Source of the DNA: Candidatus Ryanbacteria bacterium CG10_big_fil_rev_8_21_14_0_10_43_42
Lineage (GTDB): Bacteria > Patescibacteriota > Minisyncoccia > Ryanbacterales > 2-02-FULL-48-12
Length of the DNA stretch: 64,000 nt
Assembly (NCBI GenBank): GCA_002793915.1
Contig: PFEF01000006.1
Coordinates: forward strand, 24,697 to 88,696
Direction: 5' to 3'
A program made the translations under genes and the position numbers. Shown here piece by piece: positions 42,015-49,687 of this stretch. The notes below the pieces were generated by a model. The model searched no databases, was not told the DNA's origin, and was given only the letters and a program-made list of their open reading frames with translations. Numbering within the stretch: position 1 is the stretch's first letter; each line of letters opens with the position of its first letter.

Positions 42015-42674
42015 ATGGATTTTATTATGAAAGATATATTTGCCGTGTGGAAACCGAAGGGTATGACATCGCATGATGTTGTGAATGCCGTTCGGCGTGC
42101 TACGGGAATAAAAAAGGTAGGACATGCGGGTACGCTTGATCCTCTTGCGGAAGGAGTTTTAGTGGTGGGGGTTGGGCGGGATGCCACGAAACAGTTGGGA
42201 GATATTGTCGCAAAAGAAAAAGAATATGTAGCAGAAGTACTTCTTGGCACCACAAGTAGTACGGACGACGAAGAGGGTGAAAAAACAAAAAGGAATGTAA
42301 GCATTCAGCCATCAAAAAAAGATGTGGAAAAGGTGATAAAATCATTTATCGGGCGCAGTATGCAGGCGCCTCCTCGTTATAGCGCTCTTAAGGTAGGGGG
42401 TGTGCCGGCATACGCATACGCACGCGCCGGTAAAGCAGTGGAATTAAAAGAGCGGCAAATTATGGTAAAGGAAATGGAGCTTGTTTCATATGTCTATCCG
42501 TTTGTCTGCTTTCGTACCGTGACAGGACCGGGAGTATATGTTCGTGCGCTTGCAAGAGATATGGGAGAGCGGCTCCATACGGGCGGATATCTTACGGCAC
42601 TTACGCGAACGCGCGTAGGCGCATTTACCGGGAAGGATGCATGTGTGCTTTCAGAATTAAAAAAAGCCCTGTAA
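42015..42674 (+). CDS. truB: tRNA pseudouridine(55) synthase TruB (no PUA domain)
   Basis: GHAGTLDPLAEGVLVVGVG catalytic motif. 219 aa. 1 nt after tgt. Confidence 0.9.
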   Translation: MDFIMKDIFAVWKPKGMTSHDVVNAVRRATGIKKVGHAGTLDPLAEGVLVVGVGRDATKQLGDIVAKEKEYVAEVLLGTTSSTDDEEGEKTKRNVSIQPSKKDVEKVIKSFIGRSMQAPPRYSALKVGGVPAYAYARAGKAVELKERQIMVKEMELVSYVYPFVCFRTVTGPGVYVRALARDMGERLHTGGYLTALTRTRVGAFTGKDACVLSELKKAL

Positions 42675-43690: not shown

Positions 43691-44185
43691 CTATATCTCT
43701 GCGAGATTATGCTCGGGTATATTCACGCGAATTTTTTTTCCGATTAAATTTATCAAAATGGCCATGTAATCGTAAGGAGAGTTCTTTTTATTTTTTACTC
43801 TTTCAATTACCTCTCCTATAATATTCTTAAAAAGACCATCGACAACAAGAACATTTCCCGACCACTGCTTCTCAAGATCTATTATTCCGCCAGTTTCTCG
43901 CTCCTTGAGTTCGGTAATGATAAGTTTATCAATGGGCAGAATCTCACCGGTCGTTCCCACTATATATTTTACGCCTGGTACATTGTTTGTGGTGTGTATG
44001 TGTTCTTTATTAATACACACAAATAGATATTGCGGAAAGAGAGGGGTTTTTATACGTCCTTTTCTTTGTATCTTTTGATATCGCATGGGAAGGTAGATAT
44101 CATCTTTAGGAAATATGCTTTCCAAATAACTCTTTACGGAACGTTCTTTTGCCGCATTGGTCATTACCACATACCATTCCTTCAT
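43691..44185 (-). CDS. NusG-family paralog (NGN + KOW; RfaH/UpxY/LoaP-like specialised antiterminator)
   Basis: MKEWYVVMTNAAKERSVKSYLES (NGN start), PQYLFVCI, C-terminal KOW (GNVLVVDGLFKNIIGEVIERV). 164 aa. Monocistronic on the minus strand, ending at a bidirectional terminator. Confidence 0.8.
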   Translation of the reverse strand: MKEWYVVMTNAAKERSVKSYLESIFPKDDIYLPMRYQKIQRKGRIKTPLFPQYLFVCINKEHIHTTNNVPGVKYIVGTTGEILPIDKLIITELKERETGGIIDLEKQWSGNVLVVDGLFKNIIGEVIERVKNKKNSPYDYMAILINLIGKKIRVNIPEHNLAEI

Positions 44186-44307
44186 ATAGCACCTCTCAAA
44201 TATATTCTGTAAACATTAATGACATAAAAATATATAAAAGTCAATAGTTTTATTGTTGCTGAAATAGTATGCCATAATTTATTTAAAAGAACTATCCATA
44301 AGCTATG

Positions 44308-44336
44308 TTGACGTAAATAAGTTCATTTGCTAGAAT
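44308..44336 (+). promoter_or_regulatory. sigma70-like promoter TTGACG-17-TAGAAT driving the DAHPS leader
   Basis: Consensus-quality hexamers, ~270 nt upstream of the Trp-rich uORF. Confidence 0.55.
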
Positions 44337-44503
44337 GGTTGGTAATGAATAGATTCGTGAACCAGTCTAAAAACTTTTTCTCCTTTTGGGGATGGTTTTT
44401 TGCCTTTATGAGGCGGACTGGTTTTAGGAATGTGATGTAATATAAACTCACAATACATGCTAAATACCAGTCCTGTCCAAGCAGGAATTTTTTGTGCTTT
44501 AAC

Positions 44504-44551
44504 GGCTCATAATCTTTTTATAAATTTTTTAATATAAAAAGGTTATGAGCC
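44504..44551. repeat. 19-bp near-perfect AT-rich inverted repeat (hairpin/palindrome) in the DAHPS leader
   Basis: ggctcataatctttttata - aattttttaa - tataaaaaggttatgagcc (18/19 complementary). Confidence 0.6.
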
Positions 44552-44607
44552 CTATAGAGCATATTTATAGGAAAGTTCTTTAAAAAAGGAATAGGGAGGA
44601 ACGAGTT

Positions 44608-44721
44608 ATGTGGTTCGAAGATCAGGAAGAATGGTGGCGCAACGCATATACGCCATTGTATAGTCCGAAAAAAAACAACGAAGACCATGAAGATCAAGAT
44701 GGTAAAAATCTTGCATGGTAA
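44608..44721 (+). CDS. upstream ORF / candidate leader peptide (37 aa, Trp-rich)
   Basis: SD gggaggaacgagttATG. MWFEDQEEWWRNAYTPLYSPKKNNEDHEDQDGKNLAW (4 Trp including tandem WW). Ends 27 nt before the DAHP synthase start. Confidence 0.35.
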   Translation: MWFEDQEEWWRNAYTPLYSPKKNNEDHEDQDGKNLAW

Positions 44722-44748
44722 GAGAAGTACATCAAGAGGAGGAATAGT

Positions 44749-45882
44749 ATGCTTGTTAAGATGTATGGACATGCATCGTCGTCGGAAATTACGGCAATCG
44801 AGGAAAAGCTGCACGGTTTGGGGTATACAACCGGCAAAATGGTCGGTGAGGAAATCACCCTCATTGGTGTCTACGGCGATATCACCCGGCTGCCAACTGG
44901 CGAGATTCAAGAGATGGCTGGTGTAGACCGCCTGATCCCAATCTCGCGCGCCTATAAACGGGTCGCCCAAAAAGGGGTGCCCGGAGCACTTATCCATCAA
45001 ACGGTTCGCATTGGCAGAGTTGAAGTGGGCGGCGATGCATTGAGTATAATCGCCGGTCCTTGTTCGGTTGAGAGTGAGGCCCAGATTATGGAAGCGGCAT
45101 TTTTTGTTAAAGAGTCGGGAGCAAAAGCGCTTCGGGGTGGAGTGGTAAAATATCGCTCAAGTCCATACAGTGGTTGGGAAGGCATTGGTTCAAGCTCTGA
45201 AGAAGCCCTGCGGAATGGCTTACGGCTGATTGTGAAAGCCGGGCGTGCCTTTGATCTGCCAACCGTTGTTGAGGTGCTGGATGCGGCTGATGTGTCGATC
45301 TATGAAGATATGGGGGTGGACTGTCTGCAAGTTGGCGAACCGAACGCCAAAAACCAGTCTCTGCTCAATCGTCTACGTGACACCCAGCTCCCGGTCATCC
45401 ACAAACGCGGTAATTCCTTAGATATCGAAGCGTATCTCTTGTGGGTTGAACGCGTTATGGCAGCGGGCAAAGAAAATGTCATCCTCTGTGAGCGGGGGAT
45501 TGTGAGTTCAAATAAATATACCCGCAATACGCTGGATATGGGTGGTATTGCCGCATTTCATTATCAGCTGTCGTGTTTGCCTGTGGCTATTGATGCCTCG
45601 CATGGCAGTGGTATTCGTGATCTGGTCCATCCGCTAACCTTGGCTGGAATTATGGCCGGTGCCTCAGTTGTTCTCGTTGAATCCCACCCCAATCCGCTGA
45701 TTGCCAAGTCGGATGGATTTCAAGGCTTATTTCCCGAACAGCTCTCCCGCTTAGTCGCTGCCTGCCAGCAGGTGTGGGAACTTCGTAAGCGCATCGAGCC
45801 CTTGTACGTCCCGAGTGCACTACTTGAACAGCAGTATGAAGAGCGGATTGGCCATGATAAAAAACGGTTCTTCGATGTTTAA
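44749..45882 (+). CDS. 3-deoxy-7-phosphoheptulonate (DAHP) synthase, type I-beta with N-terminal ferredoxin-like regulatory domain
   Basis: SIIAGPCSVES, KYRSSPYS, ILCERGI, DASHGSG match I-beta DAHPS/KDO8PS. N-terminal ~65 aa regulatory domain as in Thermotoga DAHPS. Visibly higher G+C and CTG/GCC/GGC/ATC codon preference than neighbours. Confidence 0.9.
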   Translation: MLVKMYGHASSSEITAIEEKLHGLGYTTGKMVGEEITLIGVYGDITRLPTGEIQEMAGVDRLIPISRAYKRVAQKGVPGALIHQTVRIGRVEVGGDALSIIAGPCSVESEAQIMEAAFFVKESGAKALRGGVVKYRSSPYSGWEGIGSSSEEALRNGLRLIVKAGRAFDLPTVVEVLDAADVSIYEDMGVDCLQVGEPNAKNQSLLNRLRDTQLPVIHKRGNSLDIEAYLLWVERVMAAGKENVILCERGIVSSNKYTRNTLDMGGIAAFHYQLSCLPVAIDASHGSGIRDLVHPLTLAGIMAGASVVLVESHPNPLIAKSDGFQGLFPEQLSRLVAACQQVWELRKRIEPLYVPSALLEQQYEERIGHDKKRFFDV

Positions 45883-45893
45883 AAAGGAGGAAT

Positions 45894-46109
45894 ATGGCCG
45901 TGCACTATGATAAAAATGGATTTCCGTGTAATGGCAGATTGAAAAAGATATGCTCTGCATTAAGTTATTGTTGTACATGCAAAATGAGCATTATAAACGC
46001 GGTGCTCTTTGTACTTTCTCCGGAGCGCATATTGTTCCTTAAAATGCGCAGAGAAATTTGTAATTCTTTCCACGAAAACGGCTCTTTGGATTTAGGAGCC
46101 ATTTGTTAA
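45894..46109 (+). CDS. small Cys-rich ORF (71 aa) co-transcribed with DAHP synthase
   Basis: SD aaaaaggaggaatATG right after the DAHPS stop. 7 Cys (CNGRLKKICSALSYCCTCK...). Terminator at 46115-46147. AT-rich, unlike the DAHPS gene. Confidence 0.4.
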   Translation: MAVHYDKNGFPCNGRLKKICSALSYCCTCKMSIINAVLFVLSPERILFLKMRREICNSFHENGSLDLGAIC

Positions 46110-46114
46110 GAAGG

Positions 46115-46147
46115 TAAGGGGGTTATTAAATAATAACCCCTTTTTTC
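46115..46147 (+). terminator. rho-independent terminator ending the DAHPS transcription unit
   Basis: aagggggttattaaataataaccccttttttc: 9-bp stem + U-run. Confidence 0.75.
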
Positions 46148-48040: not shown

Positions 48041-49687
48041 ATGACCAGAAGTGAACTTCTTCAAAAATTAAAAGAAAAACGAAAGGAGATTGCCGAGCGT
48101 GAAGGCAAGGAGCTTTTTATGGTATTTCAAAATAAAGCTCTGGAAGAAACAGTAAAAGCAATGCCGCAAACACGGGAAGATTTAAAATTGGTAAAAGGAT
48201 GGGGAAAGGTAAAAATATCACGGTATGGAGACGAAATTCTTTCTATTTTCAAGCAGGGAAACGGGAAACATGAGGATACTTATGCAACAGGCGGATTATT
48301 TAATAATCCAATACCTGCCGCCGAATCTCCCTCGGGCGGAGAAGGCAAGCAGTCTCATGATAACGCCGTATTATCGGTTTCGGAATTTATCGAAGTTGTT
48401 AATATTACGCTTTCACGATTAGGTTTGGTGCGTGTGCAGGGAGAAATAAGCGAGATGCAGATGCGGGGAGCGGCGGTATATTTTACGTTAAAAGATACAT
48501 CGGGTGAGGATGCGATAGTAAAATGTTTACTTTGGAAATGGCAATTTGAACAGCAGTATGATTATTTGGAGGATGGTTTGGAAATTATTATAGAGGGAGT
48601 GCCGGATGTATTTGTAAAATATGGAACATTTAGCGTAAAGGTAAGTCGCGTAGAGCCGGTAGGGGAAGGTGCTCTTAGAAAAGCATTCGAAGCGCTTAAG
48701 AAAAAATTTGAAATGGCCGGATATTTTGATGAAGCGCGCAAGCGTCCGCTTCCGCGCATTATACAACGTATAGGAGTTGTTACTTCCGCTTCCGGAGAAG
48801 CAATTAATGATTTTAGGCGCAATATCGGAGACTATGGTTTGGAAATATGTATGGTAGATGTGCGCGTGGAAGGAGTATACGCCGAGGATTCCATCGTGAA
48901 AGGAATACAATGGTTAAATACTCATCATGCCGATTTGGACGTACTTGTTCTTATACGCGGAGGCGGTGGTCTTGAAAATTTGAAGGCATTTAATTCAGAG
49001 CGAGTTGCTGAAGCCGTTCTTGGTTCGCGTTTGCCGGTAATAACGGGTATTGGGCATGAGCGCGATGATACCATTGCGGGTTTTATAGCGGACATCAATT
49101 GCTCTACGCCAACAGCGGTTGCGGTGTATATTCGGCACATACGGGAAGATCTCATAGGGGAGGTAAATGAAAAAGTGGAACGGCTGATTCGTTTATTTGA
49201 TGTTATATACGAAACAGCACTGCGTTCATTGCATGAGCGGAAGACGGGACTTATTATTTCGTATACCCACATTCTTTCGCGGTATCGGCATGACATCGCA
49301 TCACATACGCGTGCCCTACAGACGGGGCTGTTTCAGATATTTAGCGGATTTCGTCTTTTAACGGAACAGTTTCGTTCATCATTTCACCGTTATGAATCTA
49401 TTTTACGGGAATATTATCGAACGGTAGAAATAAACGCCGTAAAAGGGGTTCGTATTCTTGAACGGAGTATGCAGGAATACGAAAAACGTATTTCTGTTAC
49501 CGAAACCGCGCTTGCTTCTCTGGATCCGGCGGCGCCTTTAAAGCGCGGATATAGTATTACATACGGATCTGACGGCCGCGTGCTCAAGAATGCAAAGAAT
49601 GTTACCATAGGGGAGAGAATCAGCGTACATTTGTACGAAGGGAATATTGGTGCGCGGATAGAAGAAAATATTCAGCCGGAAAAATAA
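48041..49687 (+). CDS. xseA: exodeoxyribonuclease VII large subunit with N-terminal HRDC-like domain
   Basis: Residues ~1-75 (LLQKLKEKRKEIAEREGKELFMVFQNKALEETVKAMPQTREDLKLVKGWGKVKISRYGDEILSIF) fit the HRDC pattern. OB fold and XseA catalytic core follow (VRVQGEIS..., IGVVTSASGEA, ITGIGHERD). Confidence 0.85.
   Translation: MTRSELLQKLKEKRKEIAEREGKELFMVFQNKALEETVKAMPQTREDLKLVKGWGKVKISRYGDEILSIFKQGNGKHEDTYATGGLFNNPIPAAESPSGGEGKQSHDNAVLSVSEFIEVVNITLSRLGLVRVQGEISEMQMRGAAVYFTLKDTSGEDAIVKCLLWKWQFEQQYDYLEDGLEIIIEGVPDVFVKYGTFSVKVSRVEPVGEGALRKAFEALKKKFEMAGYFDEARKRPLPRIIQRIGVVTSASGEAINDFRRNIGDYGLEICMVDVRVEGVYAEDSIVKGIQWLNTHHADLDVLVLIRGGGGLENLKAFNSERVAEAVLGSRLPVITGIGHERDDTIAGFIADINCSTPTAVAVYIRHIREDLIGEVNEKVERLIRLFDVIYETALRSLHERKTGLIISYTHILSRYRHDIASHTRALQTGLFQIFSGFRLLTEQFRSSFHRYESILREYYRTVEINAVKGVRILERSMQEYEKRISVTETALASLDPAAPLKRGYSITYGSDGRVLKNAKNVTIGERISVHLYEGNIGARIEENIQPEK

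Follow-up and report, generated by a model that had tools for sequence, protein, structure and literature searches.

A candidate leader-peptide attenuator with phenylalanine and tryptophan codons upstream of a DAHP synthase gene in a Ryanbacteria genome

We analysed the region upstream of a DAHP synthase (DAHPS) gene in a 64,000-nucleotide (nt) stretch of the genome of Candidatus Ryanbacteria bacterium CG10_big_fil_rev_8_21_14_0_10_43_42 (assembly GCA_002793915.1, contig PFEF01000006.1, positions 24,697 to 88,696 of the forward strand). This stretch is hereafter called the window, and coordinates given without a locus label count from its first nucleotide. A spacer of 563 nt separates a minus-strand NusG-family gene (PF02357, 43691-44185) from the divergently oriented, plus-strand DAHPS gene (44736-45882). 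The latter includes a Shine–Dalgarno (SD) sequence, GAGGAGG (44736-44742), and a coding sequence (CDS, 44749-45882) for a product of 377 aa that combines an N-terminal regulatory FXD domain (PF18152) with PF00793. The spacer holds a sigma-70-type promoter on the plus strand (44308-44336), composed of a -35 box TTGACG (44308-44313), a 17-nt spacing and an extended -10 box TGcTAGAAT (44328-44336, with TAGAAT at 44331-44336). It matches the consensus at 10 of 12 positions and is the strongest plus-strand promoter-like site between the two genes, the sole other one (44219-44248) reaching 9 of 12. The leader downstream of this promoter is more structured than its shuffled versions (z = -7.2 for 44343-44760 and z = -3.7 for 44343-44500).

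An open reading frame (ORF) of 31 codons and a TAA stop (44438-44440) occupies positions 44345-44440 of the plus strand, between the promoter and DAHPS, and encodes the peptide MNRFVNQSKNFFSFWGWFFAFMRRTGFRNVM. The approximately 270 nt following the promoter had previously been described as non-coding. In the list of ORFs of the window, this frame is entered from an upstream TTG at 44327. Its central codons, TTT TTC TCC TTT TGG GGA TGG TTT TTT GCC TTT (44375-44407), read FFSFWGWFFAF, that is, eight aromatic residues (six Phe and two Trp) in 11 codons; the whole ORF has eight Phe, two Trp and zero Tyr. It was compared with every ORF of 12-80 codons that starts with ATG on either strand of the window (n = 1404). 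By aromatic density it ranked first among the 736 plus-strand ORFs and joint first overall, and the single ORF tied with it is an alternative frame of a coding region. DAHPS, before which it sits, was the one gene of the aromatic pathway identified in the window. Because the ATG lies 8 nt past the -10 box and has no SD, we infer that translation of this leader ORF starts leaderless or nearly so.

The possible pairings of the leader RNA were described by three plus-strand segments and a terminator. Segment 1 (44360-44367, AACCAGTC) pairs with segment 2 (44415-44438, GGACTGGTTTTAGGAATGTGATGT) and thereby closes a three-way junction holding the hairpins TCTCC-TTTT-GGGGA (44379-44392) and GCCTT-TAT-GAGGC (44402-44414). 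This 1:2 domain folds at -28.0 kcal/mol, and the probability of the 1:2 pairing in free RNA is 0.73. Segment 2, which overlaps the last codons of the leader ORF, has segment 3 (44450-44473, ACAATACATGCTAAATACCAGTCC) as its other partner: the two form an inverted repeat of 24 nt with 75% complementarity, and together they make an antiterminator of -20.5 kcal/mol. Segment 1 and the end of segment 3 (ACCAGTCC, 44466-44473) have the 7-nt core ACCAGTC in common, so that segment 1 is a direct repeat with 44466-44472, and the start of segment 2 (GGACTGGTT, 44415-44423) is complementary to both copies. The last three nt of segment 3 are at the same time the first three of the terminator stem. This putative terminator (44471-44500, plus strand), found by a terminator scan, consists of the hairpin TCCTGT-CCAA-GCAGGA (44471-44486) followed by ATTTTTTGTGCTTT, with the T-tract directly 3' of the hairpin reading ATTTTTTGTG. 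The pairings 1:2, 2:3 and 3:4, the last being the hairpin with its T-tract, are mutually exclusive.

The effect of ribosome position on these pairings was modelled in two ways. In the mask model, the transcript was folded up to the terminator with a ribosome footprint of 29 nt forced unpaired; in the barrier model, RNA behind the ribosome was barred from pairing with RNA ahead of it. Free RNA folded into the 1:2 three-way junction plus the terminator, with P(terminator) = 0.80 in the mask model; for a slightly longer transcript, the minimum free energy structure showed the 2:3 hairpin. When the A site was placed on F11, F12, F14, W15, W17, F18 or F19, the mask model gave a P(terminator) of 0.07-0.25 and an antiterminator probability of about 0.8. 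P(terminator) rose to 0.93-0.97 once the A site had moved to F21, F27 or the stop codon. The barrier model agreed with the mask model, with the switch boundary between codons 19 and 20. This three-state pattern was reproduced by two of 400 dinucleotide shuffles of 44343-44470 in which the terminator was kept (0.5%).

We consider it moderately likely that the DAHPS gene is controlled by a transcription attenuator of the ribosome-mediated (leader-peptide) kind at 44308-44500. This reading draws on the elements themselves, their exclusive pairings, the dependence of termination on ribosome position, the rarity of the leader ORF's composition and the repeated occurrence of aromatic leaders at related DAHPS genes (below). 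Transcription would start some 7-8 nt past TAGAAT, so that the mRNA would begin with the ATG at 44345 or 1-2 nt ahead of it, and a ribosome would then translate the 31 codons with the FFSFWGWFFAF centre. If Phe-tRNA or Trp-tRNA were scarce, the ribosome would stall on codons 11-19 and segment 1 could not hold segment 2. The freed segment 2 would pair with segment 3, the resulting antiterminator would occupy the bases that open the terminator stem, and the polymerase would continue into the second small ORF (44608-44721) and DAHPS. With charged tRNAs available, the ribosome would reach codons 21-31 or the stop and cover segment 2; segment 3 would remain free, the hairpin 44471-44486 with its T-tract would form and transcription would end. 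In the absence of translation, the 1:2 domain and the terminator would both form. The proposal presupposes this transcription start, translation from the leaderless ATG, a weak terminator that functions in the host, and the physiological response described.

Ribosome stalling on aromatic codons ahead of the first aromatic enzyme was also the idea of the original prediction, which assigned it to the second small ORF, the WW ORF discussed below. As that ORF leaves no room for a terminator before DAHPS, the prediction had excluded classical attenuation and favoured translational regulation. The general idea is retained here, but most likely with another ORF and another mechanism: room is indeed lacking downstream of the WW ORF, but a predicted terminator sits upstream of it, directly after the 31-codon ORF, and the modelled switch around 44345-44440 makes transcription attenuation the likely mechanism. 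Other elements in that prediction, namely the promoter TTGACG-17-TAGAAT, the weak hairpin with its U tract and a 19-bp near-perfect inverted repeat at 44504-44551, are present as described.

Conservation was judged on relatives of DAHPS because all contigs carrying the window locus, of which there are five further ones, are 100% identical to it. The comparison set comprised 96 other distinct regions, each upstream of a DAHPS relative. The most frequent leader among them was what we call the Binatia type, from Binatia and allied contigs: 58 of the 96 regions carry a Phe/Tyr-rich ORF ending in ...F.FAP* (...SFPFSFAFYFAP*; for example, MADRLSSFPFSFAFYFAP and MTARVFPVFVFPAFAFFFAP). At loci L001-L003, this ORF begins 7 nt past a -10-like box. 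The stop codon coincides with a GCCCC..GGGGC hairpin followed by a T-rich tail in 55 of the 58 leaders. The stop codon lies in the hairpin loop, GCCCCC-TAA-GGGGC (L001 3800-3930, L002 3815-3925, L034 and 55 further loci), an arrangement of which the literature searched holds no description. A ribosome at the stop codon would cover the terminator itself, and the logic may therefore differ from the classical 1:2 / 2:3 / 3:4 scheme. L068, whose DAHPS is the closest relative of that in the window (94%), has a leader of this type. A second type was found at L058 and L064, where the DAHPS proteins are 55% identical and 29-codon leaders with the runs ..RFWYFS.. and ..FAYFWYFS.. precede strong terminators. 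The leader ORFs at L064 (2260-2440) and L058 (2270-2450) encode MSTNTRFAYFWYFSSPAIDRASGWTPMVL and MINRVSQTYRFWYFSRTDIGRAGGGSSMV, with Phe, Trp and Tyr codons mixed, and the terminator there reads GGCCGTGAGGG..CCCTCACGGCC-TTTT.

The third type comes from low-GC loci representing two species, L011 (a Ryanbacteria genome) and L082/L085 (metagenome contigs), which carry Binatia-like DAHPS genes. In both, a TTGACG promoter is present, and the ATG that opens a 38-codon leader ORF (...LHFWGMLFILFTRY...; MATMSRTYARVKISTLHFWGMLFILFTRYMGRHLVALS and a variant) lies 10 nt past the -10 box. This ORF is accompanied by 1:2 and 2:3 pairings and a strong terminator (-18 kcal/mol). The barrier model predicted antitermination with the A site at codons 7-23 and termination beyond; it was used here instead of the mask model, which closed a long 1:2 helix around the ribosome in a sterically implausible way. 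Between the two species, the core LHFWGMLFILF differs by four synonymous changes and one non-synonymous change, and 95.6% of the pairs in the 1:2 domain are retained, with three compensatory changes, against about 45-54% in slid controls. A gene for a 256-aa protein lies between the attenuator and DAHPS in the place of the 37-codon WW ORF. This protein (L011 3234-4004; L082 2234-3004; also in L085) has an internal duplication and a CxxC...CxxC pattern, and its gene overlaps the DAHPS start; Pfam gave no match for it, and the window contains no counterpart. As a candidate origin of the WW ORF or the spacer, a remnant of the 256-aa gene was rejected, with tblastn yielding nothing above noise.

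The window leader has the -35 hexamer, an F-W-G centre and the small hairpin CTCC-TTTT-GGGG in common with L011/L082. A covariance model built from L011 and L082 matched the window at 44371-44401 only; the matched part is the corresponding hairpin and the match is the second best in 128 kb, which is suggestive and not proof. As far as can be judged from sequence, the leaders have the same architecture, and homology is not demonstrated. All three related types resemble the window leader in gene family and location, in a promoter immediately ahead of the ATG, in their aromatic runs and in a predicted terminator at the stop codon or beyond it, and differ from it in that the peptides and RNAs are not alignable. 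Homologous loci, which had been named as a check on the WW ORF, thus bear out aromatic leader ORFs with terminators, in three unrelated forms, but none has the WW ORF. No experimental study of these leader types was found in the literature searched. A DAHPS clade preceded by at least three unrelated aromatic leader forms offers a data set for studying the gain, replacement and redesign of attenuators. At a further group of low-GC loci (L123 1540-1760, L101 2780-3005, L100, L116 and L121) we observed a conserved 38-codon ORF, MFIPACH.VEIEEN.EGFDAIPKTKFLCI...RLLRRN, whose TAA overlaps the DAHPS ATG (TAATG). Upstream of it is an SD-bearing, Phe-rich ORF of 33 codons (MADFFAFFVVLFLCFILDLIFF...), the ATG of which is lost in L101.

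Searches for known families returned no leader. No Rfam family was found in the whole 64-kb window at the gathering score, and T-box and known riboswitch classes had no Rfam match there, in line with the original prediction, which had recognised neither. At E ≤ 10, the region 44100-44850 gave only chance miRNA-like matches to the palindrome and no leader family, and the leader peptide matched no NCBIfam or Pfam leader-peptide profile at the same threshold. By its organisation, we lean towards placing the leader in the well-known class of leader-peptide transcription attenuators. FFSFWGWFFAF resembles the Phe run of PheL. Like pheL-pheA (Rfam Phe_leader) and trpL of Escherichia coli, the leader has a short ORF dense in codons for end products, 1:2, 2:3 and 3:4 segments with a terminator (here a putative one) directly after the ORF, and a choice between antiterminator and terminator set by ribosome position, here in the models. 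It differs from them in having no match among Rfam, NCBIfam or Pfam leaders, no SD and an apparently leaderless start, mixed Phe and Trp codons, a much weaker terminator, DAHPS rather than pheA or trpE as the controlled gene, and a host from the candidate phyla radiation (CPR).

The closest functional precedent, by analogy, would be aroR-aroF of Corynebacterium glutamicum. [quoted passage not shown] As that source describes it, the system is like the window leader in placing a leader peptide with aromatic codons upstream of DAHPS. The window leader belongs to a different phylum and is presumably unrelated in sequence. Against the Phe-Tyr-Phe given there for AroR, it has eight Phe, two Trp and no Tyr, and it adds an SD-bearing second ORF and a long hairpin between attenuator and gene.

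The DAHPS CDS has features of foreign DNA. GC content is 0.52 in the DAHPS CDS, about 0.40 in its surroundings and 0.30 in the leader. The product shares 92-94% identity with proteins encoded on Binatia contigs (about 87% at the DNA level), and the nucleotide similarity begins at the DAHPS ATG and ends at the stop codon. A donor leader carried over with DAHPS was considered and rejected; neither flank gave a blastn match to any of the fetched loci, so that only the CDS resembles Binatia. A rough neighbour-joining tree placed the DAHPS of the window inside one Binatia subclade and those of other low-GC, CPR-like contigs in two other subclades. Low-GC, CPR-like contigs with such a DAHPS occupy at least three separate places in it (loci considered: the window, L012, L068, L011, L082 and L101). 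From these sequence comparisons, the CDS looks recently transferred from Binatia, and the tree suggests that such genes were transferred several times or that the CDS was replaced in place. An association between Binatia and CPR may be hinted at as well. The exact DAHPS product sequence has no database record, the called gene being four residues shorter.

The WW ORF (44594-44721 with its SD, plus strand) has the SD sequence GGGAGG (44594-44599) 8 nt before its ATG at 44608 and comprises 37 codons with a TAA at 44719-44721, 27 nt before the DAHPS ATG. Its product, MWFEDQEEWWRNAYTPLYSPKKNNEDHEDQDGKNLAW, contains four Trp including a tandem WW, as originally predicted, and its last sense codon is Trp. 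SD-like 5-mers precede 27 of the 1404 small ORFs (1.9%) and WW occurs in 18 (1.3%). The WW ORF is probably translated, because no other small ORF of the window combines an SD with three or more Trp. Its homologues were sought among 5.8 billion clustered proteins (the query extended by three in-frame upstream codons) and, by a word-free HMMER search, among 1.84 billion representative proteins; both returned only the ORF itself. No Pfam or NCBIfam family matched at E ≤ 10. It is also absent from all of the 96 other distinct upstream regions collected. The proposed sensor role of this ORF thus fails the conservation check that the original prediction had named as its refuter.

The WW ORF could nonetheless act as the sensor itself, with pausing on its Trp codons, or termination 27 nt before DAHPS, altering access to the DAHPS SD; such coupling or occlusion could replace the upstream attenuator or add to it. 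We think this unlikely. In its favour are the strong SD, the combination of SD and Trp codons seen in one of 1404 ORFs, the final Trp codon and the local fold, in which the DAHPS SD and ATG lie inside a hairpin closed by 44725-44731 / 44759-44765. Masking a ribosome terminating on the WW ORF raised the mean unpaired probability of the DAHPS SD from 0.44 to 0.73, so that coupling to DAHPS translation is conceivable on the folding model. Against it, the same masking lowered the unpaired probability of the DAHPS ATG from 0.75 to 0.29; the ORF has no homologue or family match and is missing from every other DAHPS upstream region examined. Folding, which had been suggested as a check for occlusion of the DAHPS SD, bore out the enclosing hairpin but yielded no alternative-structure switch tied to the WW codons. 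In addition, a stall at W9/W10 would lower ribosome flow to the coupling site, the wrong direction for a starvation response. A translational layer could also come from the Phe-codon tract (44372-44390), which is complementary to the DAHPS SD region (44731-44747) over 13 contiguous pairs at -19.3 kcal/mol. This pairing was the strongest of 16 gene/upstream pairs tried and was reached by 1.6% of shuffles, a marginal signal; when the full length is folded, the DAHPS SD has an unpaired probability of only 0.12. Combining these features gives a two-tier aromatic sensor, which we regard as a rather remote prospect. The Phe/Trp ORF would set read-through, and two layers would set DAHPS translation: the Phe-codon tract would pair with the DAHPS SD unless a ribosome sits on the tract, and the Trp/Tyr-rich WW ORF would couple DAHPS initiation to a Trp-dependent ribosome dwell time. 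If this were true, the two ORFs would jointly signal Phe, Trp and Tyr to a gene gained by horizontal transfer.

Several observations weigh against attenuation at 44308-44500. The terminator stem has only 6 bp including a G-U pair and folds at -6.5 kcal/mol, weaker than the gene-end terminators of the window (-11 to -19 kcal/mol) and that of L011/L082. The leader ORF lacks an SD and needs a leaderless start, and we know of no demonstration of such a start for the host phylum. Phe codons arise readily from T-rich sequence, the folding models are equilibrium and not kinetic ones, and approximately 250 nt with the long hairpin and the second ORF, between the terminator and DAHPS, stand outside the attenuator model. 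The locus offers no sequence variants, blastn found no match between the window leader and L011/L082, and the covariance match at 44371-44401 is non-significant (E = 2.1). Some of these points would fit a decayed or accidental leader, in which DAHPS was transferred into an AT-rich spacer with chance Phe codons and its expression is constitutive, or driven by the same promoter but unregulated. The apparently foreign CDS (its GC content, its identity to Binatia and a similarity running from ATG to stop) speaks for such an accident, as do the weak terminator, the absence of significant similarity to any other leader and the lack of variants. Yet chance would jointly have to place the top aromatic ORF 8 nt past a 10/12 promoter, together with a switch found in 0.5% of shuffles, and two other low-GC loci share the layout with signs of selection on peptide and structure, which makes an accident improbable in our view. 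Similarly, a three-way junction with a competing antiterminator and a terminator is also the standard layout of a riboswitch. The junction (44358-44425) could be an aptamer whose ligand or protein stabilises 1:2 and frees the terminator with no translation involved, and TCTCC-TTTT-GGGGA is the sole piece that the L011/L082 model found in the window. However, no Rfam family matched even at E ≤ 10, and the junction is read in frame by an ATG-initiated ORF with the densest aromatic run. The synonymous third-position changes in the L011/L082 core indicate selection on the peptide, and the loops and junction have no conservation beyond codons. A riboswitch-like RNA is accordingly the least probable of the explanations weighed here, and a very improbable one.

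If real, the leader-peptide attenuator upstream of DAHPS would be one in a CPR member; the literature searched held no paper joining leader-peptide attenuation with this radiation. It would also mean that local amino-acid sensing can take control of a biosynthetic gene after its transfer, here with an apparently leaderless start. The points of interest are accordingly the CPR host, that start and the horizontally acquired gene under control. For annotation, the lesson is that an ORF lacking an SD can turn out to be the regulatory one.

The remaining element of the spacer is a long AT-rich hairpin (44493-44563, plus strand), which directly follows the attenuator T-tract, is nearly perfect and has no U-tract of its own. 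Its 19-bp core is the inverted repeat 44504-44522 / 44533-44551 (arms of 19 nt, 95% complementary, separated by a 10-nt loop), and the pairing can be extended to about 28 bp; the core folds at -22.7 kcal/mol and the extended form (44493-44563) at -32.1 kcal/mol. No further copies of its arms were found in the window and no counterpart in L011/L082. It may be a site of RNase III-type processing, stabilise the RNA or serve as a protein operator.

Features outside the spacer were also noted. Homologues of the NusG-like gene were found only on contigs with the identical locus. A 71-codon Cys-rich ORF with the SD AAGGAGG begins 12 nt past the DAHPS stop (45894-46143, with a downstream terminator at 46116-46143) and may be co-transcribed with DAHPS; it had no match in Pfam or NCBIfam. 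The exonuclease VII large subunit gene (48041-49687) encodes an N-terminal HRDC domain, in what looks like an uncommon fusion. No tRNA genes were found within the 64-kb window. Two TruB-family genes are present (758-1717 and 42015-42674), and RpoB and RpoC are short (1048 and 1219 aa). The other window genes fit a small-genome organism.

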